NCBI GenBank assembly: GCA_043824495.1
Contig: JBDRSV010000024.1
Coordinates: 91,056 to 155,055, forward strand
DNA from: Candidatus Aenigmatarchaeota archaeon
Lineage (GTDB): Archaea; Aenigmatarchaeota; Aenigmatarchaeia; QMZP01
DNA length: 64,000 nucleotides
Direction: 5' to 3'
Below the pieces are notes generated by a model. That model was not told the origin of the DNA. It searched no databases and saw only the letters and a list, made by a program, of their open reading frames with translations. This document shows, piece by piece, positions 13,615 through 32,579 of this stretch (position 1 is the first letter of the stretch; each line of letters begins with the position of its first letter). Made by a program: the position numbers and the translations under genes.

Positions 13615-14410
13615 TGAACCACTCCGTTAATTTTATTGAGTGTGCTGGATATGTTTTATCCACCACCAATATTTTTTTCTTCTCTAAATTCTTAAGCGCC
13701 GCTGCAAGACTAGATTTTGATATTCCCGATTTCTTTTCCAGTTCACTTCTCCTGATAACTCCTTTATTTTCTACGACTATATTTACAATCTTCTTTTCAT
13801 TCACTGATAATGTTTTTATGACCGATTCCTTTTTGGATAACCCTGGTTTCATTTTGTGTATGATTAATCCAATTCCAATGATTATGATAATACCAATAGC
13901 TGCAAACACGAATATAATTGGGTCGGTAGTCTTTGGTAGTTCCTTTTCAAATGAATATGATATTTCAATTGAGTTTATTCCTGCCCACCGAAGTTCTGTT
14001 ATATCTCCAGTTTGTATGTAAGCTGAAGGATTTGATGAAATTATTTTTGTGTTGTCAGGCATCAAAATAACAATGTTGTTATTTTGTAATCCTGTATCCA
14101 TATTGAATTTCCAGTTACCGTCTGTTTTTGATGTGAGTAGAGATGTTGTGTACAAAACAACAGCTTCTCTAGTTTCTCCAATTGACACTTCTATATAATC
14201 ATCATGCACTAGATGCAACCCGCCTCTTACTAGTACCTCATCCACATCTGCTGGGATTGGTAGACGATAAATACCTGATCCTGTTATTGTTATGCTTACT
14301 AATGTGTTTCCATTATCTTCTATGATTATGTAATATTCGGTTGCTTCTTGCGCATACACTGTCGGTATCAGCGCGAGCAATCCTATCATGATCAGCAATA
14401 CAACTTTCAT
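13604..14410 (-). CDS. membrane-anchored winged-helix transcriptional regulator with extracellular domain
   Basis: Signal peptide, about 160 aa ectodomain, TM segment FVFAAIGIIIIIGIGLII, then C-terminal wHTH (VNEKKIVNIVVENKGVIRRSELEKKSGISKSSLAAALKNLEKKKILV). Confidence 0.55.
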   Translation of the reverse strand: MKVVLLIMIGLLALIPTVYAQEATEYYIIIEDNGNTLVSITITGSGIYRLPIPADVDEVLVRGGLHLVHDDYIEVSIGETREAVVLYTTSLLTSKTDGNWKFNMDTGLQNNNIVILMPDNTKIISSNPSAYIQTGDITELRWAGINSIEISYSFEKELPKTTDPIIFVFAAIGIIIIIGIGLIIHKMKPGLSKKESVIKTLSVNEKKIVNIVVENKGVIRRSELEKKSGISKSSLAAALKNLEKKKILVVDKTYPAHSIKLTEWFNEL

Positions 14411-14475
14411 ACATGAAAGTTAATTTTTGCCTACTTAAATATGACCTGGGGGAAGGGTTCCCCAGGTATATAATT

Positions 14476-15171
14476 TTACCAGTAAAGACCTGGTCCGAAT
14501 GGGCCGATTGGTACTTCTATTGGTTTATTTGGTTTAGGTTGTGGTGTGTTCCACTCTTCAGGGAACCCTGGTCCTATACCACAGTCCCCGCATACTGCTA
14601 TTCGTGGGAATACTTTGTATTCACCGTATGAATAGTCTCCGTAGATATCCATGGCTTTCCAGTGATTTCCACTGTACCAACCAAAGAAGAGCTCATCTTC
14701 ATAGAAGCCAGCGAATTTGTGGTTCTCATAAATTCCCCATACTTTGACTCCATTATTATCTTCACCAACAAAATATCCATTTGCGTATGTTCCCCATATA
14801 ACATTTTCTCCGTCATGTGTCCATAGAATAAATCTATGTGGTCCTGTGTAGTAGGGCATTGTTTCTCCTGTTGTATCAGAAGATCCTGTACTTGGAGCTT
14901 CCATTTTGTCTACTGTAGCTTCGTAACTTGAAGGTATAGAAGCTGTAGCTTCTGTTTTAAACTCTTCTAGCTTATCTGCTACATTCGTTTTCACGATTTC
15001 TATATGCTCTGTGTTCACGCTGTTAGCGAATCCAAATCCCCTCTTCATATCATTCAGTTTCTGAATAAGAGGTTCATAATCCTCGCTTGAAACAGCTTGT
15101 GTTGAGGCAATTCCTAGTGCCAATACTGACACGAAAACAATTGCCATAATATATTTGGTGTCCATTTTCAC
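14476..15171 (-). CDS. secreted hypothetical protein (Trp/Tyr/Gly-rich)
   Basis: Signal peptide MAIVFVSVLALGIASTQA. Aromatic-rich repeats GWYSGNHW, GDYSYGEYK. Confidence 0.45.
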   Translation of the reverse strand: MKMDTKYIMAIVFVSVLALGIASTQAVSSEDYEPLIQKLNDMKRGFGFANSVNTEHIEIVKTNVADKLEEFKTEATASIPSSYEATVDKMEAPSTGSSDTTGETMPYYTGPHRFILWTHDGENVIWGTYANGYFVGEDNNGVKVWGIYENHKFAGFYEDELFFGWYSGNHWKAMDIYGDYSYGEYKVFPRIAVCGDCGIGPGFPEEWNTPQPKPNKPIEVPIGPFGPGLYW

Positions 15172-15315
15172 ACCCCCTTGACATCACCAAGGAATGAACA
15201 GGATATAAAGACCATACCGAACAAAAGTGAACAATCATGTTATATCCCTCTAATTAGACAATATAAAACAATCAGGTGCCGAGTGCACACCTAATTGTCC
15301 TTGCCAATCCTCTTC

Positions 15316-16422
15316 TCATCTCAGCTTCAAAAACGCTATATGAGGTGCAGGCAGCCACTTGACTAACGATTCAGTCCAAGAGAAAGACCATTTCAGCTTC
15401 TTCTTCATCTCGTGAACCTTCATACATTTCACCGAGACTAGATTCCAGTTCAGGATGCCGAAAGCTGTGCCCAAGAGACCACCGACAAGCATAACGAAGC
15501 CCTGTCCTACAAGATCCATTCCGGCGGAGGAAACGAGAAATTTGTAAGCGAGAAATCCGCCCAAGACTCCGTCAACTGCACACAACACTCTCTGGAAACA
15601 GTGAACCATCTTGATGATGTTCCAGATAAACTGACCGATAAATGTGAGGACCACCGAGATGCACACCAAGACAACGAAAATGACGGTCAGTGCAGTGAGA
15701 ATTGGGTACCAGACAGAAAGTAGAAGCAAACTGAAGAGAATGTATCCCATCGCGTTGAGATACCCGAGTTTTATTTCTCGGCGGTTCTTCTCCTCAAGGA
15801 AATACCTCCTTCTTAACACACCGATGTCGTATTTTTGGTCCGTGTGTCTGCTTATTCCGAGAGCCTCCCCAATACTCTTATAGTTGTACAAAACGTCTTC
15901 CCCGCTAGCGTCTTTCTTATCGACCATCATGAAAGGATAGAAGAACCTTCCGCGATCACGACTTCCAACAAAAGCGAGGAAAGAAAGAACGCCGGAAAAG
16001 ATCACAACACAGGCACCAGAGAGCGCCAACAGAAGAATGCTGCTGAGAGCGAGTTGAAGGATGTTCAGTGTTTCAGCATCTGCGAAAAGACCGGAAAATA
16101 TGTGATGTGCTGGCCACAAGCCGAGCACAAGACTCGGAAAAAGGAACGGGTGTGGCTTCGAGCATAACCAGTCCTTGGCTTTTCCGTAGTTGTCTCTGAT
16201 ATAAAACGGCCAAGTTCCGATATCATCCAACATCTCTCCGAGCATCACTTGGATCGCTTTGGCCACCTCACGGAGGTCGTAACCAAAATAACCAGCTGCT
16301 CCGCCGGCCAGGAAAGCAGCAACCCACATGTACAACTTGTCCGGCATCAGCCACATGGCAGTTGCACAGAACACGATGCCTCCAATGAAGCATCCGATTC
16401 CGATCTTCATCCAATCTTTCAT
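15316..16422 (-). CDS. polytopic membrane protein (hypothetical)
   Basis: At least 8 predicted TM helices. Intermediate GC zone (about 48%). Confidence 0.5.
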   Translation of the reverse strand: MKDWMKIGIGCFIGGIVFCATAMWLMPDKLYMWVAAFLAGGAAGYFGYDLREVAKAIQVMLGEMLDDIGTWPFYIRDNYGKAKDWLCSKPHPFLFPSLVLGLWPAHHIFSGLFADAETLNILQLALSSILLLALSGACVVIFSGVLSFLAFVGSRDRGRFFYPFMMVDKKDASGEDVLYNYKSIGEALGISRHTDQKYDIGVLRRRYFLEEKNRREIKLGYLNAMGYILFSLLLLSVWYPILTALTVIFVVLVCISVVLTFIGQFIWNIIKMVHCFQRVLCAVDGVLGGFLAYKFLVSSAGMDLVGQGFVMLVGGLLGTAFGILNWNLVSVKCMKVHEMKKKLKWSFSWTESLVKWLPAPHIAFLKLR

Positions 16423-16489
16423 GGCGAAAATCTCCTTCTCGTTGTATTTCTTTGTTTATAGTTATCGTCCTAGAATTAATTCAAAACAA

Positions 16490-17041
16490 TCATATCTGCA
16501 AAGGTTCAAGCAGATACATCAGACTTCGGTCTCGTAATTCTGTCCTCTTATAAGGAGGGAGATCTATGAGACAAAGACTGGAAATACTCACGTGCATGGT
16601 TTGATACTTGGTTTCGTCTGCTTGGTACATTCCCGTAAAGATTATATTATTCAGGACAAACCCGGAAACTACTGTCCAGATCCAGAATGCCATCCATCCA
16701 TCGTACAAGAAGACGCTGGCAATCGCTGAAATGATTGCACCCACTGCGAGAACACCTACCTCAAAGAGAAGCATCGTAAAGATATCTCCCACGGGGTCGT
16801 TTTTGTCCTCTTCCCACCAATCCTCCATGACGAGTTCGTGGATAATCATGTCAATGAGATTCTGCCTGTTCTGCATTTTCTCGTGGTAGGCTATGAAACG
16901 AGTTGGTTGACGAATGTTGTGCCAGATGATCAATCCAATTGGCACCCAGATGACTGCTGTAGTGACAAGCAGCCAGAGAACTACTCTAGTTTCCATGTCC
17001 CCTCCAGGATTGATTGTTAGAAAAAATACTAGTATAATCAC
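16490..17041 (-). CDS. membrane protein (hypothetical); probable true start at Met 16996
   Basis: METRVVLWLLVTTAVIWVPIGLIIW TM helices; same strand as 15316..16422. Confidence 0.45.
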   Translation of the reverse strand: MIILVFFLTINPGGDMETRVVLWLLVTTAVIWVPIGLIIWHNIRQPTRFIAYHEKMQNRQNLIDMIIHELVMEDWWEEDKNDPVGDIFTMLLFEVGVLAVGAIISAIASVFLYDGWMAFWIWTVVSGFVLNNIIFTGMYQADETKYQTMHVSISSLCLIDLPPYKRTELRDRSLMYLLEPLQI

Positions 17042-17249
17042 TCTCGTTAATTGACATTTCTGTCTTTCGTTGTCGTAGAGTATTGATTCCTAAATTACAG
17101 ATGATGACTTTACCTCGAACAAGAATCTTGTGCCAGGTGCTAAAAGTTGTCAGCGATGATAAATGTGGAACATGATGCATAGAATTTAACCTAAAATTTT
17201 ATAAACCTATACAAAACCTTTTTATACCTCTTAATTGACAATATATAGT

Positions 17250-17639
17250 ATGAAGAAAAAAGCAAAGAGGACCACAAAGAAAACAGTGAAAAAACCAGTC
17301 AAGAAAATAAAAATAGAAAAGAGAGTAACACCAAAACCAAAAAAAGAAGAGAAAATTAAATGTCCTTATTGTAAGAGTTCTAGAGTGGTTTGGAGAGGAT
17401 ATAGATACAACGAAAAGACTGACAAGCACTTAAGATTATGTAACAACTGTAAGAGAAAGTTCACAAAAAGAGACGAGTTCTTCCGTATGAGATTCGGTGA
17501 AGAAGAGATAAAAAGAGCTGTGGAATTATACAAGAAAGGTTATTCTTCTGCAGAAGTAGTTCAGAACCTGAAAAGAAATCATGGAATAAAGGTTTCAAGA
17601 TGGACTGTGATCTGTTGGCATAAGAGATACACTAAGTAA
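17250..17639 (+). mobile_element. IS1-family InsA-like Zn-ribbon/HTH protein, solo with no InsB
   Basis: CPYCKSSRVVWRGYRYNEKTDKHLRLCNNCKRKFT mirrors the InsA CPSC...YLCSHCRKTW pattern. C-terminal HTH GYSSAEVVQNLKRNHGIKVSRWTV. TTTATA box about 26 nt upstream of ATG 17250. The track start TTG 17235 is less likely. Confidence 0.45.
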
Positions 17640-17659
17640 TTATTTTTTTTATCAGTTAT

Positions 17660-17681
17660 TATATCCCTTTAAATGGACAAT
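17660..17681 (+). repeat. junction motif copy 2 (TATATCCCTTTAAATGGACAAT)
   Basis: Exact AT-to-GC switch. Followed by hairpin GGAGAGGTGCAG...CTGCACACTCTCC, the terminator of minus-strand gene 17755..19629. Confidence 0.85.
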
Positions 17682-17754
17682 GCAAAGGGAGAGGTGCAGT
17701 ATTCCACATCTGCACACTCTCCCACCACATCACCTTTTCAGGCTTTGCAGATTT

Positions 17755-19629
17755 TTACTTCAGAAGCGTCATCTTTTTGCTTTCCGTCAGGCTGGCCGTT
17801 TGCAACCGATAGAAGTACATACCGGACGCGACGGCCTTACCGTAGCGGTCGGTTCCGTCCCAGCTAACCTGATGTGTTCCTTCGGGCTGGGACCCGTTGA
17901 CGAGAGTGGCAACGTTGCGGCCGAGGATATCAAAGACCTCTAGCTTTACGTCTCCTCCCTGAGTCAACTGATAGGAAATCACGGTTCCGGCGTTGAAGGG
18001 GTTCGGGTAGTTCTGGTTCAAGCTGAATGATGTAGGAACGGCTCCTGTTGTCTTGTACGCGATGTTCAGCGTACCTAATGGAATCCACCCAGCCGGAACT
18101 GTCCGGCTGTTGTTGATCTCGTCAGCTATCGTTTTGGCCAACTCGTGATCGCCGAATGGATCGTCGATCAAGTTGTCGCAGTATGTTACCGCCTGTGACA
18201 CAGTCGCGCCGTCATCGCTAATCACAGCGGTTTGTGCCAGTTTGCCGCTAGCGACATTGAGTAGCAAAGCCATGAGTTGCTGTCTGGCTCGATCAATCAT
18301 GTCAACGCTGCCCTTGAGGTTCAGCAACGTCTTCGCGACTTCGAGCTTGTCTTCACAAAGATCCGACACGGGTGGATCGTACACGACGACCTCGTTCACT
18401 GCGTTCGAGTTGAAGTGGCCCGCGATGAGGTCGAGATAGCTACACAGAGTTGAAGCATCGATTTGCGCGCGGCCATTCCCACCAGTAGCGACGCCGACGT
18501 TGTGTTTCCAGAAGCCGATTGTTCGTTGTTCTCCAGCGTCTGACGGGCATCCCAATTCAAAGTCGATTTGGGCTGTGCCTTCACAATCGAGATCGACGGA
18601 CTGTTCGCTCGGAAATGCCGTATACCCGAGGGGGCCAACAAATGATACCATGTAGCTGGCCTCACCCGGGAGGTTCTCGAAATCGTAGTAACCGGCTTCA
18701 TCAGTCACAGCCGATTCTACAAGTACACCGGTGGCATCGAAGACATCAATCGTGATACCAAGAACAGAGCAGTCAGCACTCAGTGTGCCCTCAATTGCGG
18801 CGAAGCATTCTTCCTCTCCACCTCCGCATGCACACGTTCCATCTTCCACCTCAATGGCGGTGATGGTGTTGTCGTAGGCGTCCTTTGACCAGACGACGGT
18901 CAACGGCGCGAAGTTGATGACGTCGCATTCGAGATCCTCATCCCGACCACCGATCGTCGCGAAGTCACTGAGATACACGCCCGTTGTCTTGTCAATGCGA
19001 ACGATGTTGCCCAGACCATCGCGCCCGATGTAAAGGGTGTTCCCCGTCCCAACAATAACACCACTTATTCGATCCAGTGTATTGCCGGCCGCGTCGGTCG
19101 GATACAACGTTCCCAGATAGGCTCCCGAGCCCGCATCGAAGTGGTCAATGCCCGTTGATACATCATCGGAAACCCAGACACTGTTATCCGTCGCATCAAA
19201 GCCAATGCCGTCGATGAAACAGAAGCCCGGTGTTACCACAGAAAACTGGAAAGTGGCTACGCCGGTGGTGGGATCGATGAGATACACGTTCGCCGGACAT
19301 TCGTTGTCACTGCCTCCCCAGATCATGTTGCGCGTATTGTCCCATGCAATAGCGCCGATCGAAACTGGTGTGCCATCCGGTTTGAAAATGGAAACGAAGC
19401 CGAGATCGGTGCCGAATTTGTCTATCGAGTAGAGAGTTGGGTCGAAAGAGTTGGTGTAGAAAATCACACCATCACATCCAACTGCAACACCGATACCGAC
19501 ACCAGACGAGCTTGGAACAGGAACTGTGACGTTCGTGATGACATCACCGGGAGCTGCCATTGACGTAGCGGTGATAGCGGTGAAGAGGCAGAACACAACA
19601 AGCGCAGTGAAAGCTGTGAGACGCTTCAT
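17755..19629 (-). CDS. secreted protein with T9SS (Por) C-terminal sorting domain, CarboxypepD_reg-like domain and beta-propeller-like repeats
   Basis: Signal peptide MKRLTAFTALVVFCLFTAITATSMA. EAGYYDFENLPGEASYMVSFVGPLGY. C-terminal NYPNPFN...YFYRLQTASL sorting domain. GC-rich. Confidence 0.6.
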   Translation of the reverse strand: MKRLTAFTALVVFCLFTAITATSMAAPGDVITNVTVPVPSSSGVGIGVAVGCDGVIFYTNSFDPTLYSIDKFGTDLGFVSIFKPDGTPVSIGAIAWDNTRNMIWGGSDNECPANVYLIDPTTGVATFQFSVVTPGFCFIDGIGFDATDNSVWVSDDVSTGIDHFDAGSGAYLGTLYPTDAAGNTLDRISGVIVGTGNTLYIGRDGLGNIVRIDKTTGVYLSDFATIGGRDEDLECDVINFAPLTVVWSKDAYDNTITAIEVEDGTCACGGGEEECFAAIEGTLSADCSVLGITIDVFDATGVLVESAVTDEAGYYDFENLPGEASYMVSFVGPLGYTAFPSEQSVDLDCEGTAQIDFELGCPSDAGEQRTIGFWKHNVGVATGGNGRAQIDASTLCSYLDLIAGHFNSNAVNEVVVYDPPVSDLCEDKLEVAKTLLNLKGSVDMIDRARQQLMALLLNVASGKLAQTAVISDDGATVSQAVTYCDNLIDDPFGDHELAKTIADEINNSRTVPAGWIPLGTLNIAYKTTGAVPTSFSLNQNYPNPFNAGTVISYQLTQGGDVKLEVFDILGRNVATLVNGSQPEGTHQVSWDGTDRYGKAVASGMYFYRLQTASLTESKKMTLLK

Positions 19630-20175
19630 GGATTTTTATTCCTTAGGTTGTGAGGGAAATATGACCCTCCGGGTTTGTTTTTCGATTAGTTTCTGATTGT
19701 TTGTCGTTTACCACGTTTCCAAGTTAAGGTCCGCGAATCGCTATTTTCATTGGCATCCTCTCTTTGGGTTAATGTTGTCCGCACAAATTGCGGGATTAAA
19801 AGAAGGAAAGACACAAAAGATAGAGTATGTCTTATGTAGACTGAGAGTAAAATCATTCGAAGAATAAAGCTAATACTATTAAAACAAACATGCATGTTTG
19901 ATGTGTTTCTTTTCATGTTTTTTGTGTTAGCCAATGTACCGTTTCTATGGTTAATTGGATTGATTGAGTTGCAATCAATACAAATTTAAATGATGTTCGA
20001 ATGAGTAGCATGATTTAAATTGTATACAAAAATTGACGTTGATTCATCGTCGTTTTTTTGTGTTTTGGTATTTTTTTTGATTCTAGCTTGTCGCTTTTGT
20101 CAAGTCTTTAACTCAAGTATATAGCTTACAGGTATTTAAATGTTTTCTAACACATTTTTTTTAATTTTCTTTCTT

Positions 20176-20197
20176 TTATCCCTTTAAATAGACATAT
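20176..20197 (+). repeat. junction motif copy 3 (TTATCCCTTTAAATAGACATAT, slightly divergent)
   Basis: At the AT-to-GC switch that opens island C. Followed by inverted repeat AACGGGCG...CGCCCGTT. Confidence 0.75.
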
Positions 20198-20199
20198 AA

Positions 20200-23100
20200 A
20201 AAGGCAAACGGGCGAAGATTTGGAGCCAAACTCTTCTTGATGTCTCACCTCCGCCCGTTAAATGCCGTTGTCCGGCCTATCAATTTACCCGCCGGTTAGG
20301 TGAGCACATGTGCTCGTGTCCCAGAGGCGCATGTTTTCATGCCCTCCTTTGCCGGGTTCTTACGCGAACGTGCTGCTTGACCGAGATAATGTAGCTGCCA
20401 GATTCCCCACAACCTTGTTATTGGTGGAACCGCGACAGCGGTCGGTCCAGTCCGTATGCATCGTAGCCTCACTTGGTGAAGGACTGCGAATCAAGAGACG
20501 GGGATTCAGAAGAATCCCCGTCTCACGAGTTGACGGTTGGTACGAGATATATCAAAGGAAGTCTTTATGCCATTGGGTGCATTCCGAAACCTTTAGCCTC
20601 GTCCGTCTCCGAGGGATCCTATCAAAGGTTTCATAAAGGAAATTTCATGGACCTCGTTACGATAGGATCGGAGTGGCGTAAAGCCACGGCCAGAACCTCG
20701 AGGTCCCCCAGGATAAGATCACCGTTTGAATATGAGTCAGCGGTGAACGTAAGGGTGCTGGCGATTCTTCTTCGCATTCAAACCCTCCAGGGAACACTTC
20801 GTAATTTGTGTTGTCAGCGGCTGTTTACGAATCGGCGGTGATCGTTTCCACCACGGTACATGTCGGCGTGGTGACAAACGATGAAGAAGCGACTTCAAAA
20901 CGCGCGCGGCCATTGCTCGGCGGCGGCGAATGAGCCCAGGCATTGACGGCGGTCGCGGCGGTATTCATCCAGGAAGCGACCACTGGTGACCCGCGAAGGG
21001 TCGGTAATCGGTTCATAGAGCAAGCTCCATTTCTTCCGATAGGAAAATTCCAATCCACTTTACAAACTCTCGCCTAAACAGAAAGTATTGTCACATAACT
21101 TTCCGTCGCAAAAGAGAATGTGAAGAGGAAACAATTTCGTACACCTCGTCAAGAGATCGTCTCCATTTTCACCCTACATGGGCTAGGCGAGAGGATAGAC
21201 CAGTTGCTGATAGAGATGTAGAGGGAACCGTTTTCATCCGAAGATCTCTCCCGTCCCTCAGGGAGTAAGTTGCTCGTCCACCAGGTTCCCATACCAAGGG
21301 AGCTGGCAACTCTGCCATTCTCTCTATCCGACTCTCTGTTGTCATCGCCACTACGGCAACAACTCTTAGCCTATCCGGCGTAGGATTATGAGAGTGTAGA
21401 GCGAATTCCTCGTTCCATGTTTGTTCTGTATCGCTGCCTGTTATGATATCCAATCCTGAAAACGGGATTGGGTCAGCGGTATAAACAATACAGGAACCAT
21501 ATATGAGGTAGCAGAGTGTCATGATTCCCAGCATGACAACTCCTTACAAGGGCACATGGTTATATGGTAAATGCTCTCTCCGTCAACAAATCGTGCCCTC
21601 TAAGACATGTTTAGGAGAGAAAGGCGACAACTCATGAAGTGTTCTTCAGGTGGACCCGTCATCACTGTTATTGCGTTGACGGCCTTCTCCTTGACCCGGA
21701 CTTAGACGTGTGGCTTTCGGTGTTTTCGCGGCGCGTTTCTGCTGTTTTGGACTACGCTTCTTGTTGCTCGGAAGCCCGTCTCGGGCACCACCGTGACACG
21801 TCATGAAAGACCTCGTTTGTGAGGAGTTCAGTTCAAGCTTGTGCTGGAACTGTTTGGAACGAGGAATTGTTACTCTTTACGGCGAGCGATTGTGTGTCAT
21901 CGTAACTCCTTGACAATGGTTTCCACAAGCTCCAAAATAAAAAAGAGCTGTTGTTTTCAAATTCAGTTGGGAATCTCCTAGCCCGCCCCCAGAACTGACT
22001 AGAGGAGATCCCCAACTTTTGTACAGCGCACCCCGTGCATTGTTTTCAGGGTGGAGGGGCCCGGCGGTCAACTGAGCCCCTCACTGGACGAATCGGTCAC
22101 AGATAACATGTTACGCATTACCGACTCGAAATCTATGCCACGGCAGTAGATGGAAGTGGTCGCATCTACCGCCGGGCTTCACGACGTTGTGCATTTTGTC
22201 GCCTTCAGCCTTACACAACGCCGTTATTTCCCCACCCACAGGGAATTTAATATCGCGGGGCCTCACTCAGGAGACCCCGCTTCCGTTGGGTTTACTACCG
22301 AATTGTTCGGTAGCGTTCTTCCACGACAGACATACGCACATGCGCACGTCTTCATTTCTTTGAGGACCTACTCATCTCCGATTTGAGTAGGTCCTCGGCT
22401 CCCCACAACCCCCCGATCAGCACCGGGAATTTTTTTGAGGGGAAATCTGAGCAGATATCTCAGACTCCCCTCCCGTCAGGTCTACCGACCAGCACTTCCG
22501 GTTGGACGCCGGAAATTCTTTATTAGAAGGGGTTTCCCCTCTCCAAGAAACCCCTTCCTCTTCGGCGTAGCGCGTCTCACGCGCTTTAGTGCATCGATCC
22601 CCACCGATCAGGTAAAACCCTTGGATGGTTCTCTCCCCGAACCCCCACTGAAATATTTTGGAACCCCTCATAGATCCCCGTAATCTCCGAGAGGTTCCGA
22701 CAGCAGCACCATACAAATGGGACTACCGTGACAATCAAAAATACCGGAATCCACCGCGTCAGAAGAGGATTCCGGTATTCTACATCGCTGGTTGTGTTGA
22801 GAGCTTACCCCTTACTGGTCTTAACGAGTATGTTACGTCGGACTTCCTTTCACCAAATATACGGGTCACTACAGAATACCCGATCGATCCGCTTTGTTGT
22901 CTTAATCTCACCAGCGGATAGTGACGCGGTTACAGCCAGCGATTTCGCCTTTATACAACAGGCGTCTCCAAACCAAAATGGAAATTGGAGTTGTTGCTTC
23001 CACACTTCCGGATTTCCCCCTCCGGTAAACTCTAAGGTACTGATAGGTGACCGCTCGTGTTTCTTGTGTTCGCAATTGCCGATTGCATCAAGCTCTTCGT

Positions 23101-23800
23101 AGATCTAGATCTGGAAGTAATTAGCAAACGATCACAATAAACAGACAACTGGGAGAAGTCCATTTCTACCAGTACCTGGATTTTCTAACCCTCGGGAGGT
23201 GTGTACAAGCCTAAGCAGAGTTTGTCCTGTTGAATTGGCCCCGAGGGTAAGTGGCCTTCCGGAAGAGAATTGGTGAGGTCCTGTAACAGAACTCTATCTC
23301 ATTCCGGGGTAAAGCTCAAGGCACAGCCAGAAGGAGACGTATTACCTTGAGAAGTTGGTCTCCCGAGTGAAGAAATTCGAGATGTCCCATCGATGAAGGA
23401 CATCTCTTCTCCACTCGGGCTCATTCGTCAGCCTGGAAGGAGAAGTGCAAGAGTTTTCGCGCAATTACTCTCTCTCCTCCCGGGAAATTTATGACCTCCT
23501 GGTCCGAAACTTGTGCCGCGGTAAACCAGAAGGCGTAACTGCTAGGCTATGTGACGGCCACAGCAGTAGGGATCGAATCCAATACACGAAAGACAGCTAA
23601 GACTAACTCTGTCTCGTGTGGTTTACGAGTAAAATTCAGAAATCGATAGTCTTCGGCCTCTTCGAGGGAAACTGCTTAAGCGCTTAATTGCAGCGCGTTA
23701 TGTTTCCTGGTAAGTGACCTGTTCTCTAGGATGTACCGAAGGCTAACTTAGTTAGTCTCGGGAAATTCGCGTGTGATTGGTAGAAATGAAACATGAAATG
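20200..23800. other. GC-rich ORF-poor island C, dense in perfect hairpins; candidate structured ncRNA(s) or degraded foreign DNA
   Basis: No ORF over 125 aa in 3.6 kb, versus dense coding elsewhere. Many perfect 6-13 bp inverted repeats, e.g. 22363..22397, 22525..22556, 22741..22778, 23366..23430. Confidence 0.5.
21169..21534 (-). CDS. small hypothetical protein with N-terminal hydrophobic segment
   Basis: Perfect SD AAGGAG plus 5 nt before the ATG (rc of 21535-21546). MLGIMTLCYLIYGSCIVYTA is signal/TM-like. Confidence 0.4.
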   Translation of the reverse strand: MLGIMTLCYLIYGSCIVYTADPIPFSGLDIITGSDTEQTWNEEFALHSHNPTPDRLRVVAVVAMTTESRIERMAELPAPLVWEPGGRATYSLRDGRDLRMKTVPSTSLSATGLSSRLAHVG

Positions 23801-23949
23801 TCCTTATATATAAATGTAATTTAATTACTTAAATAGGTTGATGGATAGCTTTAAAAAGGTACTATTAAAATTATTTTTTTGTGAAGGGATCGATATACCA
23901 AGTGCTTCCAAAAATAAAGAGTAGAAAAAAATAAGAGTGAAAAAAGCAA

Positions 23950-25992
23950 TTAACCAATGAATTCAACCTTTTCAAAACTGCCGTTTTCTTCAAATTTGTC
24001 TAATGTTGATACGAAAATTATTACTTTTTTCTTGTCTTCTTTACAGATTCTAGCTGCTTGTTGTATTACCATGTTCTTGATTCTGTCTGAAGCACATATG
24101 AAATGATTGCTTTGTTTCAAGTCCTGATAAATTAATTCTCTATCATCTGTGTCTTCAACCATTATAGTTAATTCTTTTCCATCGTTCTGTAAATATATTC
24201 TGTTACCTTCTTGTTCACTCTTCCATCCGACTTCATTAAAGGTCTGCATGATACCTGTTAAGTTCAATTCTTTTTTCTGTGTTGAGTTACCAAATTTATT
24301 AGTGAAAACTTTCTCTCCTATATTTGTAAGAAAGTAATAACATAATCTATTCTTCTTAACTTTAGCATCAGCTGAATCAACTAATCCGTTATAAGTTAAG
24401 TTCTCAACCTTTTTCTTGAAAGTTGCTCCTGACATTTTTACATTTGTGTATATCTGAGATGTGTAAGCAGCACTACCATTACCAATGGTTTTCATCATAG
24501 CCCACTCTTGTTCTCCTAAATCCTCAATTGGAAGAGAGTTTATGAATTCTTCTTCCTTTACTGGAGGAGGTGAGTAGCTATCTTCTTTAGCTATTCTGTC
24601 TTTCATGTGCTCTCTGATATCATCATCTACAATAGAGTTCTTAACCAGTTTAGCCTTGTCGAATTTTACAAGGAATGGTTCTGGGAAATTCATAGAGTGT
24701 CTCAAAAGCATGAAACCGTGACCTACTGGCAGTCTTCTTAGATACTTACCTTCTTCTCTAGAATCAAGACCAAGCATGTTTGAAGCGTCTTGAATATCTG
24801 AAGTATGTTTTGTATCCAAACCTAGATTCATGTATATATGAGTAGAAGTATTACCAATTGCTGGATATGAAACTAAAGATGGATGCTGATCTATGTATAT
24901 CATTCCTAATCCTAATTCTCTAATTTCTCTAAATATTAATTCTACAACGGTTTCTGATCCTAATTTGGCAGATTTTTCTCTGTTAAGAACATGATGAGCT
25001 TCTTCCATCACTATACATCCTATGACTTCTTCTTTTCCGCCTTCTACGAGTAACCAATCTCTTATCCACTGTAGAATTATTTCTATGATAAAGCTCTTAT
25101 CATTAACATCAAGAGCATCTAATTCTAGAATTGTTACCTTTCCTTTCTTGAAGAAATCAGATGGTTTTATACCTTCTACACAGTCGAATATATGACCTGT
25201 GTCTTTGAAGCATAATGACTCTAATGGTCTTTCAGCTGTTGCTAACCAGTTTCTTTCTCTTGTTGGCAGCTTACCTTCTGCATATTCTGCTAAGTAATCT
25301 TTAAGGTCAAACAGTGTTGGATTTTTCTTTTCCTTGAAAACTCCATCTAAAGCTTTCAAGATTACGTGTCTTCCACCACCGAGTAACCAGTAAGAATGAT
25401 CGAATATTGAAGAGAACTCTTTCATCCACTGTGTTTGACTAATTCCTTTAGGACCTTTCAGTGGATTGAATTTGAAAGGAGCTACGCCTCTTCCGATTGT
25501 GTAAATATCTATTTTGTCTTTAATTTTAGTTGATAGTAAATCTTTATAATTTCTCTTAGAGAAATCAAATATCAAAACAGGAATATCCTTTTCTGCTAAT
25601 TCTTCAATTAAGTTATATGAAATATTTGTTTTACCATAACCAGATGAACCAAATATTCCTATATGTGTAAGTAAGTTTTTCTCTTCTAGCATGATTGGAT
25701 ATAAACCCTTTCTTCCGTATAAAACATCACCTAATCTAATTGTTCCTTTAGCTGCTGCTTCTTGGCTAGGAGGTTCCATTAGTACTGTATCTCTTAGATC
25801 TTCATCAGCAGAAACTGCGGCTTTTATAACATCAAGTAGTTCGAAGATTCTTTGTCTTACATCTTCGTTTCCAACTAAGTAAGCTTTACTTAATCTCAAA
25901 GCTTTGTCTTTACCCAAGATTGGAGTAAGCTTCTTAATTTCATCTGCAATTAGTTTTTCTTGAATATTAATCATTTGTACCACCCAAATCAT
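23950..25992 (-). CDS. HerA/FtsK-superfamily ATPase (DUF87-like) with C-terminal winged-helix region
   Basis: Walker A GIFGSSGYGKTN. Walker B IVMEEAHHVL (EEAH typical of HerA). C-terminal wHTH-like segment. Confidence 0.6.
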   Translation of the reverse strand: MIWVVQMINIQEKLIADEIKKLTPILGKDKALRLSKAYLVGNEDVRQRIFELLDVIKAAVSADEDLRDTVLMEPPSQEAAAKGTIRLGDVLYGRKGLYPIMLEEKNLLTHIGIFGSSGYGKTNISYNLIEELAEKDIPVLIFDFSKRNYKDLLSTKIKDKIDIYTIGRGVAPFKFNPLKGPKGISQTQWMKEFSSIFDHSYWLLGGGRHVILKALDGVFKEKKNPTLFDLKDYLAEYAEGKLPTRERNWLATAERPLESLCFKDTGHIFDCVEGIKPSDFFKKGKVTILELDALDVNDKSFIIEIILQWIRDWLLVEGGKEEVIGCIVMEEAHHVLNREKSAKLGSETVVELIFREIRELGLGMIYIDQHPSLVSYPAIGNTSTHIYMNLGLDTKHTSDIQDASNMLGLDSREEGKYLRRLPVGHGFMLLRHSMNFPEPFLVKFDKAKLVKNSIVDDDIREHMKDRIAKEDSYSPPPVKEEEFINSLPIEDLGEQEWAMMKTIGNGSAAYTSQIYTNVKMSGATFKKKVENLTYNGLVDSADAKVKKNRLCYYFLTNIGEKVFTNKFGNSTQKKELNLTGIMQTFNEVGWKSEQEGNRIYLQNDGKELTIMVEDTDDRELIYQDLKQSNHFICASDRIKNMVIQQAARICKEDKKKVIIFVSTLDKFEENGSFEKVEFIG

Positions 25993-26515
25993 TAAAGATC
26001 TTTAAGATCTTATTTTCTGTTTGTAGTTGTTCCAGGAGCTCTCTTAGCTCTGTTTTTAATTCTAATCCATCTCTCCAAAAAAGAATATTTTCTTGTCTTT
26101 TTTCTTTTCTGAGAATAGAAACATCAAGTTTGAAATTTCTCTTTTCATCGATGTCTGTGATATGATTCATCATATCGTCTTTTTCTTCGATGTCTTCTTC
26201 AATTTCTTTTAAGAATGTTTTGTGGAGAACTTCTCTTTCTTTCATAGTGTTTTCAATTTCACTAACTCTTATTTGCAAGAATTCTACTTTATCGAATAAG
26301 CTTCCAATAACTAGAGGATCATCTCTTTTTAGAGCAGTGAGTTTACTTTCTTCAAATCTTGGCATTGATCTTTTCTTAATAATTTGAACTTCTCTAACTT
26401 CGGGTTCATCTAGATCAATCTCATCATGTCTAATTAAAGACTCACGTCTTCTCTTTTTTGTAATGTCTTCATACTCGTCAAGAGTTTTATAATAGGGTTC
26501 CATTAATCTGTCCAT
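25967..26515 (-). CDS. coiled-coil protein, operon partner of the HerA-like ATPase
   Basis: 182 aa, highly charged heptad-like sequence. 26-nt overlap with the downstream ATPase gene. Confidence 0.45.
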   Translation of the reverse strand: MDRLMEPYYKTLDEYEDITKKRRRESLIRHDEIDLDEPEVREVQIIKKRSMPRFEESKLTALKRDDPLVIGSLFDKVEFLQIRVSEIENTMKEREVLHKTFLKEIEEDIEEKDDMMNHITDIDEKRNFKLDVSILRKEKRQENILFWRDGLELKTELRELLEQLQTENKILKIFNDLGGTND

Positions 26516-27342
26516 AATAATTACCTCGAGTGACCATTTGTCACTATCTGATAGTTAAAATATGTATAAAGGGTTTATAAAGCTTTCGGTTAGCTTGCAG
26601 TGTGCTGTTTTTGAGCGTAAAAATCGTGTACGAAAGACAATTTTCTTGGGTTTCCATGACTTTTGTGCCAACGAAAGACATATTCTGTCTTTAGTAAGAG
26701 AGTTAATAAAGATTTCTGTCTCGCGCCTTATAAAGGATCCGAATTGGATATTTTATATAGTAATTAATTACTATTGTAGAGATCTTTATTTACTTAAGTC
26801 TTTACATAAATAATTCTCAAATACTTTTTGTCTTTGCTAAAGTTTAATGCAGATTTTCCTCGAAACTTTTGTGGAAATTCTTGAAATCAAATGTCTTCTA
26901 GTTTTGCTAGAGCTTTTGAAGACATGGAAACTCTCATAAAACCCCAACCGAAAAGTATTTAAACCCTTTGACTATAATTTCACTATAGATTAGTGACAAC
27001 AAATTAAGAAATGTCTGAGTTATGTGTGGTGTCAAATCCTACATAACTATCTTTACAATCTACGCAACTTTGAATAAAAAGAATTTCGGGTTAAACTCGC
27101 AATTCTAAACTCAGAGAAATTGAGTGCACAGGAATTTAGGCGCGGCCTAAAATCCCCATAAGAAATCCAAAAAAATGACACGCTTTGTGTCAAAAAATGT
27201 GATTTGAGGGGGTTTGATTTCCTTAGCTCTGAGTATCTACTTTTCGAAAACCACGAAGACTCGCGTAACAATTCTAAGCAATAAATATAGTGAAATTCCA
27301 GACTTCTGTAGACTTTCGCTGTCTGACATAGAAATTAACAAG

Positions 27343-27354
27343 TTGACAATAAAC
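27343..27354 (+). promoter_or_regulatory. TTGACAATAAAC sigma70-like -35 element upstream of 27378 (copy 1 of the island D promoter cassette)
   Basis: Same TGACAAT(A/T)AAC as at 29368 and 30278. SD GGGAGGG before ATG 27378. Confidence 0.4.
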
Positions 27355-27377
27355 GGAAACTTCTGGGAGGGATTGTC

Positions 27378-27740
27378 ATGAGAAATATCATGAGCTGTGT
27401 TTTCCTGCTGCTCACATTATTCCTGGTGAGTTGTGCGAAAAGTGGTCCGGAGCTGGGGAGTGATATCCGGATCAGTGGAACAATCGTCGACATGAGCGAA
27501 GGAGGTAGTAGGGATTTCCTGATCCAGTCCGGAGGAAAACTCTACCATTTCGGTACTCGACTGCAATTTAAATGGAGTAAACTTCGTGCGGGACATTACG
27601 TCACCGTGGATGGGAAGTTTGGGGGACCGTGCGAGGAAGCCTCAATGTTCAGACGCTACATGTACGACGACGAAGGGAACTTCATCAAGTCCCTCGAGGT
27701 CTATGACATCATCCATGTTTCGAACGTGGAGAGGCAGTGA
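27378..27740 (+). CDS. lipoprotein (hypothetical)
   Basis: MRNIMSCVFLLLTLFLVSC has lipobox LVSC. GC-rich, with SD. Confidence 0.5.
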   Translation: MRNIMSCVFLLLTLFLVSCAKSGPELGSDIRISGTIVDMSEGGSRDFLIQSGGKLYHFGTRLQFKWSKLRAGHYVTVDGKFGGPCEEASMFRRYMYDDEGNFIKSLEVYDIIHVSNVERQ

Positions 27741-27869
27741 TCCCACTGAGTTCATCCAATTCATCGGGTGGACCCAGATGAGATTATTGTCTAAAGGCTA
27801 AATCAGCAGGCCTTGAATTGTTGGTAGGGATCATTGGAAGATTCCCAAAAACATGGCAAGGAGGGCAAC

Positions 27870-28022
27870 ATGTCGCAGGGAACCAAAAACACCAAAGACA
27901 CAGGAACAAGAGCGTTTCTGGTTATCGACGGAACTACAGGAGACCTCATTCCTGTGAAAGCATCGTCTGGACGAAAAGCTGAGCAAATCGCCGGCAGCGT
28001 AACCAGACAATCCCGCAAATAA
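27870..28022 (+). CDS. small hypothetical protein (50 aa)
   Basis: AAGGAGGG SD 7 nt before ATG 27870. Hairpin GAGTATC...GATACTC after the stop. Confidence 0.3.
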   Translation: MSQGTKNTKDTGTRAFLVIDGTTGDLIPVKASSGRKAEQIAGSVTRQSRK

Positions 28023-28159
28023 AATTACCCACTGTGAATTCCCCAGGAGTATCATCCGCCCGGAAGATACTCTGTTCTCCCCCATACTACCATAGGCCAC
28101 ACGGAGCTCATCAGGTTTTCACTTGGTGGGCTCCAGTGAGATCTTTGGTGGTTAACGTT

Positions 28160-28240
28160 CCATAACCGTTTCATTCACAACCTTTTGCCGACCTTGTCTG
28201 CATTGCAGCTCAAGGAAGTGTGTAAAGGAAGGAGAGTGTC
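28160..28240 (+). promoter_or_regulatory. conserved leader/promoter region copy A (CCATAACC...CCTTTTGCCGACCTTGTCTG...AAAGGAAGGAGA-ATG)
   Basis: About 75% identical to 32682..32757 upstream of gene 32758. Preceded by GAGCTCAT...GGTGGGCTC, similar to 31980-32030 and 32613-32665. Confidence 0.5.
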
Positions 28241-28942
28241 ATGTTATTGCATGTAACAGTAATAAGCCGCGGAGACAGAACAACGATCGATGTTCCCAGA
28301 ACAGAATTCAACTGGGATACCAATCAATGTCGCGTAGTTGAAGGTGCAGAGGAAGCTGAAAGAAATCTCGGGGTGGCGGAGAATCTCGAAATCCGTAAAC
28401 CCGCGGCTTACCAGGGACCCTATTTATACTGTATTGTAGAGGTGGGGTTCGAGGAAATTTGTTTTCCCCCGACTTTCCTCAAGTGGATCGAGAATGTTCC
28501 CGAGGATGAGAAAAGAGCCATCCTTATCGTTCCCACCAAAACCATCCGAAAGGCCGATGATAGTCACTATATGGGATCTATAGATCGTTATAGGTATTAT
28601 CCTCATGGTGAAGTCTTCCTGATTGGTCGCAGAATCATCGTGAGGAACATCTACCTATCACCTGATAACATCAAGATGGTGGTGGATAAAATCCTTGCCC
28701 GACTGAGTGACGGCCTGTTCCTCCGGTTGGCCTTTGAGTTTCTCCAGGCTACGCCGATCAGTGACAATCCTACGGTGACTGGAGAACATATCACCATGTT
28801 GGATAATCTCTTCACGGGGACGCGTTCCCTTCGGAGAGGAGATTCAACTCGTCGCGAACGGTTCAATCATGTTCGGGCCGTGATTGGACATATGGCCAAA
28901 CACGGGATAGTTCTGTCTGGCAAGATCGAACCCGTGAAGTAA
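28241..28942 (+). CDS. hypothetical protein
   Basis: 233 aa, GC-rich, strong SD AAGGAAGGAGAG. No family recognised. Confidence 0.5.
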   Translation: MLLHVTVISRGDRTTIDVPRTEFNWDTNQCRVVEGAEEAERNLGVAENLEIRKPAAYQGPYLYCIVEVGFEEICFPPTFLKWIENVPEDEKRAILIVPTKTIRKADDSHYMGSIDRYRYYPHGEVFLIGRRIIVRNIYLSPDNIKMVVDKILARLSDGLFLRLAFEFLQATPISDNPTVTGEHITMLDNLFTGTRSLRRGDSTRRERFNHVRAVIGHMAKHGIVLSGKIEPVK

Positions 28943-28995
28943 TCAACGGCTTGGAAACCAAGTCAAATCAACGACAATGAAAGTTGAGGTGTAAT

Positions 28996-29316
28996 ATGAA
29001 TAGGCGAATACAGAGTATGATTGTGATGACTGCGACTTTGATAGCTGTTGCAGTCTTTCTCCAAGTCTCACAGCTTCACGCGGCACATTTGATGGCAACC
29101 GCAATTGCAATTGCGGTTGTGGTGATGATCGTTGTTAACATGGGAAGAGTTCCCAACACTCGGCAGAAGTTTCGGAACTTCTCTGTCGGAGCCGTTTTCG
29201 GGAGCATCTTCCTGTGGGAGTTGTTCAAGGTTACGTTCTTGAATCACCCTGCGGCTCTTTGGAGTGTGGTTGTACTCGGAGCTGCGGCAGTCTCATTTCT
29301 GACGTTCCGCCGGTAG
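28996..29316 (+). CDS. small membrane protein
   Basis: Three hydrophobic helices. ATG 28996 preferred over the track start 28984. Confidence 0.4.
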   Translation: MNRRIQSMIVMTATLIAVAVFLQVSQLHAAHLMATAIAIAVVVMIVVNMGRVPNTRQKFRNFSVGAVFGSIFLWELFKVTFLNHPAALWSVVVLGAAAVSFLTFRR

Positions 29317-29330
29317 TACTGAAGTTCACC

Positions 29331-29380
29331 GGGGATCCCGATCAATCTGGTTGGGATCCCCTCAACCTGACAATAAACTG
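29331..29380 (+). terminator. hairpin GGGGATCC-N15-GGATCCCC followed by TTGACAAT -35 box (cassette copy 2)
   Basis: Perfect 8-bp stem right after stop 29316. The TGACAATAAAC repeat also occurs at 27343 and 30278. Confidence 0.5.
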
Positions 29381-29414
29381 TTGTTAAATGTTCCATTACA
29401 CCAAGGAGGGCGCA

Positions 29415-30233
29415 ATGCGTCACCAACGTTTCATCACCACAGTACTGGCACTCATGTTCTTGACTGTGCCGGCAATGTTCAGCAGTGCGGTTCTGGCCGA
29501 TCCGATTTCATCCGGAGACGGTCAAATGTATGTGGTCCAACAGGGAGATTGGTTGACGCGGCCGATCATCCCGACACTCTACTCGGATGTGTTGAAGCCA
29601 GGCGACTTGAAGAGTGCTCTCTGGATCGCTGACATCTTCGATACACTCAACATTAACATCACCCACCGCGACAAAATTCGGGCGTATGATACCATCATGG
29701 CGCCGTCATTCGCGGCGTTGAAGAAGTACAAACATCTCGCACCCGCCGACGTGGTCATCAACCTGTTCGCCACGTATGATATCGCGTCCATGGAACTTGT
29801 GGACGCCGAGTTTGTAAGAAAGCGCATCGAGGACTTTGAGGGTACTTACTGGTACAAAAATCGAGCCGCGTGGGCCCGAATTTTCGGAGTCGGTAATGGC
29901 ACGTATGTCTGCGGTGACACCGTGATGCCGTTCTCATGGTTCATGAGCTGCAATACGGACGGTAATACGGGAATGACTATCTCCATCTCCATGGACGAAG
30001 GAGATCTCACCGCAGTTCGCAAGGTTCCAGGTACACGTAACGGATTCTGGGGAGCCAGTCGTGACAATAAGTTCACATACGTGGGCTTCGGCAACGACTG
30101 GATCGATCGTTGCGACTGGAATGACGAGACCGAGAGCTGGGACATTCCACCAGTTCTGAATGAGATCGTCGGAACTCTCAACAACTTTCCATTCGTCCAG
30201 TATATGACCGTCGTCGCGTACGAACTGGAATAG
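29415..30233 (+). CDS. secreted hypothetical protein (paralog family with 30334..31659)
   Basis: Signal peptide TTVLALMFLTVPAMFSSAVLA. AGGAGGG SD. C-terminal FPFVQYMTVVAYELE resembles the paralog's FFTNMKVIMYTVK. Confidence 0.5.
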   Translation: MRHQRFITTVLALMFLTVPAMFSSAVLADPISSGDGQMYVVQQGDWLTRPIIPTLYSDVLKPGDLKSALWIADIFDTLNINITHRDKIRAYDTIMAPSFAALKKYKHLAPADVVINLFATYDIASMELVDAEFVRKRIEDFEGTYWYKNRAAWARIFGVGNGTYVCGDTVMPFSWFMSCNTDGNTGMTISISMDEGDLTAVRKVPGTRNGFWGASRDNKFTYVGFGNDWIDRCDWNDETESWDIPPVLNEIVGTLNNFPFVQYMTVVAYELE

Positions 30234-30241
30234 TTGTTACA

Positions 30242-32557: not shown

Positions 32558-32579
32558 GTCCGCGACATCACCAACCAAT

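Follow-up and report, generated by a model that had tools for sequence, protein, structure and literature searches.

The closest described counterparts of the element reported here are the large non-coding RNAs (ncRNAs) GOLLD, ROOL and OLE, which are defined by conserved nucleotides and covarying helices. The element, here called island C, occupies positions 20202-23790 of a 64-kb stretch of DNA from a Candidatus Aenigmatarchaeota archaeon (contig JBDRSV010000024.1 of assembly GCA_043824495.1; the whole 64,000 nucleotides are referred to as the window), an AT-rich member of the DPANN archaea. Island C resembles these RNAs in being a long structured region free of open reading frames (ORFs), with a promoter-like and a terminator-like end and an accessory, variable context. 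It differs from them in that it has no covariance-model match, in its archaeal (DPANN) host and in consisting of a chain of local hairpins instead of a conserved multi-domain architecture; moreover, its positional equivalents in related genomes have no sequence in common. Klein, Misulovin and Eddy reportedly described GC-rich islands in 2002 as a way to find ncRNAs in AT-rich hyperthermophiles. Island C likewise stands out from an AT-rich genome, and the equivalent units of three compared loci (L029, L033 and L034; loci are numbered with the prefix L throughout) are also GC-richer than their flanks, but the protein-coding islands of the window match island C in GC content and in terminal motif, and the unit of L031 shows no GC contrast. 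Since the coding islands are equally GC-rich, GC-richness alone cannot separate an RNA gene from foreign DNA.

In the present study, island C is interpreted as a promoter-to-terminator non-coding unit of the minus strand (or two such units), which lies in a variable slot found lineage-wide and would yield a hairpin-array RNA; we put the chances of this reading at slightly better than even. As far as sequence comparison allows this to be judged, a variable non-coding slot recurs in Aenigmatarchaeota, of which island C is one case; the slot is so far undescribed, and no account of such islands or motifs in DPANN was found in the literature. The features of island C are, from the 5′-end to the 3′-end of the minus strand:

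23805..23856, minus strand: predicted AT-rich promoter-like 5′-end, directly after the HerA stop codon
20202..23790, minus strand: island C body, ORF-free, ~49% GC and structure-rich; taken as non-coding transcript(s)
23362..23419, minus strand: long imperfect hairpin of ~23 bp with inverted-repeat arms, -38.7 kcal/mol
21930..22830, minus strand: hairpin array in which folding gives ~18 independent stem-loops over 900 nt, one after the other like beads on a string
22740..22779, minus strand: 13-bp perfect hairpin, followed by UUUUU on the minus strand and resembling an internal terminator
22526..22557, minus strand: 11-bp perfect hairpin, GAAGGGGTTTC/GAAACCCCTTC
22362..22396, minus strand: 13-bp perfect hairpin, GAGGACCTACTCA/TGAGTAGGTCCTC
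21932..22017, minus strand: 15-bp hairpin (21965-22017, one G·U on the minus strand), followed by CUCUUUUUUAUUUUGG
21169..21534, minus strand: 121-aa ORF with AAGGAG upstream, identical to hypothetical protein ABIJ92_04345 of a Candidatus Aenigmatarchaeota archaeon metagenome-assembled genome (MAG)
20495..20524, minus strand: 13-bp perfect hairpin, GAGACGGGGATTC/GAATCCCCGTCTC, inside a second structured patch
20203..20266, minus strand: terminal hairpin AACGGGCG...CGCCCGTT (20207-20259), then the T-rich run GTTTGCCTTTTTATA; -28.6 kcal/mol
20175..20201, minus strand: 27-nt quasi-palindromic motif closing the unit, minus strand TTTTATATGTCTATTTAAAGGGATAAA

Island C is real, and four independent measures show it to be non-coding. 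It has a GC content of ~49%, as compared with ~33% for the genome, and the GC profile lies at 0.48-0.52 at 20-23 kb vs. ~0.30-0.36 in the flanks, which confirms the GC-richness described in an initial annotation made from the sequence alone. It is the fourth of the GC-rich islands (45-58%) in the window, which are located at ~1-3000, 15268-17100, 17687-19640, 20202-23790, 27000-36281 and 56994-59030; the window also encodes the ribosomal proteins S4e, L24P/L26e, S17 and S7 and an Rpb3-type RNA polymerase subunit. The longest ORFs within island C comprise 124 aa (22728-23102, plus strand), 122 aa (20473-20841, plus strand) and 121 aa (21169-21534, minus strand). The longest stop-free run amounts to 142 codons, the mean of 300 dinucleotide shuffles being 143.7, and 46% of the shuffles reach 142. 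The ORF poverty pointed out in the initial annotation is therefore at chance level, and the maximum of 121 aa given there has to be replaced by 124 aa. An alternative genetic code was ruled out, TAA, TAG and TGA being frequent and evenly spread in all six frames. The chi-square of the three-base periodicity (period-3) is mostly 2-8 across island C vs. 20-60 in flanking genes, with weak bumps only at 20700-21300 and 23250-23850 (chi-square 14-19). A codon-usage log-odds model was trained on 15 genes of GC-rich islands, for which leave-one-out scores of 0.10-0.33 bits/codon were obtained; every island C ORF of at least 60 aa scores at or below 0.013. Six-frame translations of island C with stops masked were compared with Pfam, and no family was found at E up to 1, while the same procedure recovers all five domains of the protein encoded by neighbouring island B.

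The AAGGAG upstream of the 121-aa ORF was correctly described in the initial annotation, but the ORF itself does not resemble the genes of the islands. Its codon score is -0.040 bits/codon, inside the range of spurious ORFs and to be compared with 0.10-0.33 in real island genes, its period-3 signal is weak, no Pfam or NCBIfam match was found, and its sole match among 5.8e9 proteins is itself, i.e. it is an ORFan. It is probably not a real gene, and ORFs such as ABIJ92_04345 are probably false gene calls in Aenigmatarchaeota MAGs.

The unusual hairpin density reported earlier was borne out. Island C contains 8 perfect stems of at least 9 bp vs. 0.51 expected (maximum of 3 in 200 shuffles) and 4 of at least 11 bp vs. 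0.06 expected, and 22 local inverted repeats were counted in it. In a stem census of the window, 7 of 43 stems of at least 10 bp fall in the bin 22000-22999, while the other bins hold 0-3. For the whole of island C, folding gave z = -14.9 on the minus strand and -10.5 on the plus strand, with an excess folding energy of -47 kcal/mol per kb as compared with -5 to -11 kcal/mol per kb for host genes. The array segment at 21930-22830 has a minimum free energy of -414 kcal/mol (z = -13.9) on the minus strand vs. -328 kcal/mol (z = -10.4) on the plus strand, and the second structured patch is located at 20400-20700 (z -4 to -6). Tandem or internal repeats were not detected in island C: a hand alignment at a period of ~185-190 nt revealed no real repeat, and no k-mer is enriched. 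The hairpin and U-rich run at 21932-22017 may be an internal 3′-end, which would split the island into RNAs of ~1.85 and 1.7 kb.

Most of the individual hairpins listed in the initial annotation were found again. The 13-bp stem (22362-22396), the 11-bp stem (22526-22557), the inverted repeat CCCTCGGG/CCCGAGGG (23185-23251) and the terminal hairpin adjoining the motif are all present, the stem given for 22741-22778 exists at 22740-22779 but has 13 instead of 12 bp, and the long imperfect stem, noted there as ~30 bp, pairs over ~23 bp. Two entries could not be upheld, since the stem placed at 22307-22325 is actually an 8-bp stem at 22295-22313 and that at 23017-23036 is a trivial 5-bp CCGGA/TCCGG stem only.

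Island C lies in a slot with a fixed order of elements, which are a gene of 182 aa, a gene for a HerA-like ATPase, a variable unit, a hairpin with T-run and 27-nt motif, and a gene for a Zn-ribbon/helix-turn-helix (ZnF-HTH) protein. For the comparison of slots, the window was analysed together with the neighbourhoods of nine HerA/DUF87 homologues, which have 57-69% identity to the window protein. A gene of 179-201 aa and a HerA-like gene precede the variable unit in all 10 contigs. In most cases the motif closes the unit and the ZnF-HTH gene comes after it, and in several contigs the ArgRS gene then follows, as in the window. The flanking genes of the window and the contents of the slots are:

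25967-26515, minus strand: 182-aa ORF, upstream neighbour
23950-25992, minus strand: HerA/DUF87 ATPase (Pfam DUF87)
~17337-17639, plus strand: Zn-ribbon and HTH gene, ~100 aa, in an AT-rich spacer between a degenerate (17221-17247) and a strong (17660-17686) motif copy
Window slot: ORF-free, 3.6 kb (island C)
L029 slot: ORF-free, 3.3 kb
L031 slot: ORF-free, 2.3 kb
L033 slot: ORF-free, 1.4 kb
L034 slot: ORF-free, 2.3 kb
L037 slot: two ORF-free units, 1.3 and 1.4 kb
L039 slot: ORF-free, 1.9 kb
L035, L036 and L038 slots: small ORFan protein genes

ORF-free units of 1.3-3.6 kb are thus held by the slot in 7 of the 10 contigs (window included), and a period-3 signal was found in none of them. The distance from ArgRS to the HerA-like gene is 2.6 kb in L031 (12013-14659) vs. 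11 kb in the window (12952-23950). The extra DNA of the window consists of islands A and B (the second and third of the islands listed above), with one motif copy each, and of three AT-rich ORFs (13084-15171), and island C sits where L031 has its 2.3-kb ORF-free stretch. The ArgRS-HerA interval is a hypervariable accessory region. Between the units of L031 and L029, only ~120 nt at the 5′-end are common (70% identity), and island C, apart from the motif, showed no similarity to other parts of the window, to 28 loci bearing the motif or to entries of plasmid, phage and IMG/VR collections.

Several lines of evidence suggest that island C is transcribed from the minus strand. In the array at 21930-22830, 42 G·U pairs are formed on the minus strand vs. 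12 on the plus strand, and in the island C stems of at least 10 bp all six mismatches are A·C on the plus strand and hence G·U on the minus strand. Five syntenic units were also pooled, and stems of 9 bp or longer were counted if they contained no more than two mismatches, all of the transition type. Along the herA-to-motif strand, which is the minus strand of the window, these mismatches were G·U in 57 cases vs. A·C in 24 (binomial p = 3e-4), the frequencies of G x T and A x C being nearly equal at the near-balanced base composition of these units; island C alone contributes a ratio of 20:7 in favour of G·U on the minus strand. In folding, z is more negative on the herA-to-motif strand for all eight ORF-free units of the seven genomes (e.g. 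-9.7 vs. -6.7 in L031, -4.9 vs. -1.6 in L034 and -8.2 vs. -3.6 in L037), and on this strand the excess folding energy of the eight units over shuffles is 33-57 kcal/mol per kb.

The two ends of island C are consistent with this orientation. The 5′-region carries the elements TTTAAAGCTA (23846-23855) and CTATTTAAGTAATTAAATTACA (23815-23836) and a consensus archaeal TATA box, TTTATATA (23807-23814), and the transition from AT-rich to GC-rich sequence takes place at ~23785-23790, ~25 nt downstream of this box. Host promoters of the window have (A)AAGCTTTATAA-type boxes ~30 nt ahead of ATG codons, like the 5′-end of island C, and similar TATTTAAGTAWTTAAAT / TTTAAAGCTA elements are found at the 5′-ends of the units of L031, L029 and L033; on these grounds, 23805-23856 is predicted to function as a promoter. 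At the 3′-end, both a stable hairpin and a T-rich run are found, the kind of elements by which an intrinsic or archaeal terminator at the end of a unit is recognized. The exact ends of the transcription unit can be placed provisionally on the basis of these elements. The initial annotation had assigned the minus strand from motif orientation, and this choice agrees with the strand bias of folding, with the excess of G·U over A·C mismatches and with the promoter-like 5′-end and the hairpin, T-run and motif at the 3′-end.

The 27-nt motif, with the consensus TTTATATTGTCTAWTTAAAGGGATATA, closes each GC-rich island on the side toward which its genes point. In a scan with a position weight matrix, the following copies were located in the window:

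3004-3033, plus strand: motif copy
36282-36309, plus strand: motif copy
15241-15267, minus strand: motif copy
17221-17247, minus strand: motif copy, degenerate
17660-17686, minus strand: motif copy
20175-20201, minus strand: motif copy, at the end of island C
56967-56993, minus strand: motif copy

Six of these copies are strong and one is degenerate, and for the 21-nt core at no more than 3 mismatches 6 matches were obtained vs. 0.00 expected. A GC-rich hairpin, variable in its sequence, and a T-rich run consistently come before the motif, and the same layout of hairpin, T-run and motif was found in Aenigmatarchaeota and unclassified archaeal MAGs of 30-62% GC in public collections; in IMG/VR the motif was not found. 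The motif is usually located 30-100 nt past a stop codon, often with a convergent gene on its other side. For 36 motif instances, the 70 nt upstream have a mean z of -2.46 vs. -0.29 for the 70 nt downstream. Judged from this arrangement, the motif marks the 3′-ends of transcription units and is specific to the lineage, and therefore the orientation of island C would be that of the minus strand. A function as promoter of the downstream gene was rejected as a general rule, because the next gene is mostly convergent and the motif comes after a stop codon, hairpin and T-run; the motif may serve as operator for the ZnF-HTH gene. In L027 (SMTZ1_10011072) five direct motif copies are present (at 2699, 3455, 4608, 5631 and 6602 in reverse-oriented coordinates), 0.75-1.15 kb apart and followed by a ZnF-HTH gene; one of the units holds two tRNA genes, and another ends in a tRNA-like 3′-end right before the T-run. 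A tRNA beside the motif in L013 was not confirmed by ARAGORN and Rfam.

The neighbouring Zn-ribbon/HTH protein probably binds to the motif. This protein has weak Pfam Zn-ribbon matches, and its HTH part corresponds to positions 2-52 of the 202 positions of the NCBIfam IS6 transposase model (E = 2e-5, 24 bits vs. a curated cutoff of 125). A catalytic or DDE domain was not found in it, and from these similarities it is a possible motif binder that may represent a domesticated transposase fragment. Homologues of it are located beside or near the motif in L003, L018, L031/32, L033, L034, L035, L036 and L037; the homologue of L027 lies ~4 kb from the first motif match, and that of L039 has no motif detected nearby. 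At the other side of the slot, the HerA/DUF87 ATPase has a weak, sub-threshold likeness to CedD, of the DNA-translocating ATPase family (NCBIfam, E = 8e-17, 61 bits vs. a cutoff of 600), and many of its homologues are annotated in the sources as MarR-type regulators.

Of the other islands of the window, that at 868-2947 carries a gene for a bacterial-looking M32 (Taq-type) carboxypeptidase with 58% GC, and at 17755-19629 a bacterial-looking protein of 624 aa with FlgD-Ig, SdrD-B and type IX secretion C-terminal sorting domains is encoded; in L029, a FlgD-Ig protein of 1174 aa is encoded at a comparable position bounded by the motif. The 9-kb GC-rich island at 27000-36281 may be an integrated element of unknown type. 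It contains eight co-oriented ORFans with strong AGGAGA ribosome-binding sites, for which no Pfam, PHROG or NCBIfam match was found; two of them have a weakly similar C-terminus, and intergenic hairpin modules are repeated (29328/30239 and 31971/32607). A Cas4-like PD-(D/E)XK nuclease is encoded on the plus strand at 36936-37589, ~630 nt downstream of the motif copy at 36282, and a fused Eco57I/MmeI-type restriction-modification enzyme of 908 aa on the minus strand at 39330-42056. A CRISPR array was not seen in the window, and the identity of the cluster as a defence system was rejected, only weak HerA or mad8 similarity being found. The gene for myo-inositol-1-phosphate synthase (47035-49560, minus strand) is split by an intein with a LAGLIDADG homing-endonuclease domain, while the enzymes of L031, L036 and L037 are intein-free and have 360-440 aa. 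At ~17094-17112, at the 5′ edge of island A by the degenerate motif copy, two Logan contigs of SRR26275509 meet, and this break at ~17.1 kb could reflect strain heterogeneity or a presence/absence polymorphism of an island.

Under the proposed reading, transcription of island C would start at the AT-rich archaeal-type promoter at ~23.81-23.85 kb, just downstream of the HerA-like ATPase operon, cross ~3.6 kb of GC-rich sequence and stop at the hairpin and T-run at 20.20-20.27 kb, ahead of the 27-nt motif. The product would be a long beads-on-a-string RNA with ~35 local stem-loops, which are densest at 21.93-22.83 kb. The slot lies between the herA-like operon and the small Zn-ribbon/HTH gene, and other genomes carry other units in it, mostly ORF-free and RNA-structured. 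The RNA may act via its hairpins, either by serving as a scaffold or decoy to which proteins bind or by giving rise to small RNAs derived from the hairpins. If the action is through generic hairpins, the helices would be kept while the primary sequence would be free to change or to be swapped.

A number of observations speak against this reading or leave room for others. The strand difference in z for the whole of island C is modest (-14.9 vs. -10.5), and the G·U bias may come from transcription-coupled C-to-T mutation instead of selection; whichever of the two is its cause, selection on RNA helices or transcription-coupled mutation, the bias implies that the minus strand is transcribed. The longest stems are perfect Watson-Crick palindromes, which are also suited to a role at the DNA level. 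With blastn at word size 7, the eight positional equivalents resembled one another only in the 5′ promoter-like element and the 3′ motif, and no 9-nt k-mer is common to at least four of five units. Since the units have no common sequence, the comparison suggested in the initial annotation yielded no alignable core on which covariation could be judged; the evidence falls short of a conserved RNA gene as commonly understood. The GC-rich islands next to island C that are closed by the same motif encode proteins and look foreign; island C could be foreign too, and in view of the ORFan genes in L035, L036 and L038 the slot may simply be an insertion hot spot. Finally, a six-frame query against 5.8e9 proteins gave no match, but it also missed the known self-match and is not evidence. 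The lack of common sequence leaves two readings live, namely RNAs working through generic hairpins, or an insertion hot spot with foreign non-coding cargo that happens to be transcribed.

The second of these is related to the possibility that island C is the non-coding cargo of a mobile cassette and that the slot is a hot spot of insertion, at which foreign GC-rich segments are captured beside the motif, in an integron-like manner or in that of IS26 translocatable units, which pile up next to a copy already present. In this case the hairpins would act, if at all, as DNA, e.g. as origins or recombination sites left over from a plasmid or virus. We regard this as unlikely, though as a serious contender, and it is compatible with the unit also being transcribed. 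It would account for the fact that each strong motif copy lies directly at one end of a GC-rich island, the genes of which point at the motif, that islands A and B are extra relative to L031 and came with one extra motif copy apiece, that the slot content is different in every genome, and that the island proteins are ORFans or of bacterial type (M32 peptidase, T9SS-tail protein). The five direct motif copies of L027 next to a ZnF-HTH gene and the resemblance of the ZnF-HTH protein to the DNA-binding N-terminus of IS6 transposases would fit as well. Integron and IS26/IS6 arrays are indeed similar in that co-oriented unrelated units, each closed by the same short site, lie beside a gene for an IS6-like DNA-binding protein; they differ in that no integrase or DDE domain is found here, the units have promoter-like ends of their own and the site is present at one end per island. 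An integrase, DDE transposase or HUH nuclease was not detected in or beside the array (for Phage_integrase, among the proteins scanned around it), and the ZnF-HTH protein has no catalytic domain. The motif marks one island end only, with no second copy or direct repeat at the 5′-ends, and it also follows tRNA-containing and ordinary units, often between convergent genes, as would fit a 3′-end signal. Furthermore, the strand-specific G·U bias points to RNA instead of DNA hairpins, and matches were absent from plasmid, phage and IMG/VR collections. As specific candidates, an attC site was rejected after inspection by eye of seven ends, among which only the island C hairpin has an RYYYAAC-like left core, with GTTTGCC unfit as right core (GTTRRRY); an IS6/IS26 element was rejected as well, the likeness being in array layout only, since a protein of ~100 aa is found instead of a DDE transposase of ~230 aa and the flanking motif copies are direct and not inverted. 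An origin in dead DNA, i.e. one or more horizontally acquired genes decayed beyond recognition and tolerated in the variable region, is rated improbable. The composition is like that of the neighbouring foreign islands, and the small period-3 bumps at 20700-21300 and 23250-23850, the Shine-Dalgarno sequence ahead of the 121-aa ORF and the empty return of the deep six-frame protein search, own self-match included, could be cited for it. However, decay cannot make a 16-fold excess of perfect stems or a z of -14, stop-free runs equal random expectation and the codon usage of the islands is not seen in any ORF. The Pfam search, the control of which worked, gave no remnant in any frame, and ORF-free structured units in the same slot of 7 of 10 genomes would need parallel complete decay in small genomes. 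The heavily decayed genes considered in the initial annotation thus gained no positive evidence, with the limit that the deep protein search had lost its own positive control.

It is even less probable, and in our view very much so, that island C is a diverged member of a known group of large RNAs or introns, such as GOLLD, ROOL, OLE, HEARO/omega RNA, group I/II introns, rRNA, RNase P or a CsrB-like sponge. The size and structure content are within the range of large bacterial ncRNAs. The covariance-model search named in the initial annotation was performed with Rfam 15 at gathering thresholds and gave 0 matches in the 64-kb window; a permissive search of 19600-24000 returned only three snoRNA-type chance matches (E at least 4.4), no Rfam match was found in the syntenic relatives L029 and L031, and tRNA, tmRNA and rRNA were not found. 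Judged from these searches, island C is not recognisable as GOLLD, ROOL, OLE, HEARO, an intron, RNase P or rRNA, so that of the GOLLD/ROOL/OLE assignment in the initial annotation the structured RNA is retained as the favoured explanation and the class membership is not, there being no Rfam match and no sequence common to the equivalents. The ORF-less retroelement, also considered there, was not supported: in the six frames no reverse transcriptase (RT) or other Pfam domain and in Rfam no group I or group II intron match was found, and no RT, TnpB or IscB is encoded nearby. As an incidental check of intron detection, a group II D1-D4 match was found in the unrelated locus L003. A cluster of C/D-box sRNAs was rejected, since neither strand of island C has a C box (RUGAUGA) paired with a D box (CUGA) at sRNA spacing, and five units together have a single such pair. 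CsrB/RsmZ sponge RNAs resemble island C in their array of stem-loops, and ORFs with the domain of CsrA, a bacterial RNA-binding regulator, are present in the slot of L037 (11344-11760) and L039 (11095-11304), beside ORF-free structured units. They differ in that island C is ~ten times longer, its host is archaeal, its loops are not enriched in GGA and no CsrA gene was found among the window proteins scanned. GGA occurs in 9 of 79 loops of island C (shuffled mean 5.7) and in 24 loops of the eight units pooled vs. ~19.5 expected, and the sponge was therefore rejected. The remaining explanation, a chimera in which GC-rich contigs of another organism were joined to an AT-rich archaeal scaffold during assembly, is the one to which we give the least credence. 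Sharp GC jumps and the Logan break at ~17.1 kb would be expected from it, but in a 48-kb contig of an independent Logan assembly (SRR26275509) host genes run on without a break into island B, island C and the 27-36 kb island, the same lineage-specific motif is found at every junction, and the same architecture recurs in unrelated samples.

DPANN archaea have small, host-dependent genomes, and almost nothing is known of their non-coding RNAs or of their uptake of foreign genes. In Aenigmatarchaeota, a fixed address is given over to 1.3-3.6 kb of sequence that does not code for proteins and keeps dense RNA-type pairing on one strand. If its transcription is true, this would be a rare prokaryotic long RNA locus that is conserved in position, strand and structure content, not in sequence. 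The conserved 27-nt motif and the candidate transposase-derived binding protein offer experimental handles, and the lineage-specific 3′-end motif and the hypervariable accessory region could help to annotate Aenigmatarchaeota MAGs. More tentatively, and with the balance of probability on the other side, the slot beside the operon of the HerA/FtsK-superfamily ATPase, the motif and the domesticated IS6-derived protein may together form a new type of locus, in which interchangeable promoter-to-terminator units mostly give kb-long hairpin-array RNAs, with position, strand, ends and hairpin content conserved and the sequence not. Such a locus would represent either a new class of prokaryotic long ncRNAs that use generic stem-loops or a site at which foreign nucleic acid is captured and expressed in an episymbiotic archaeon.

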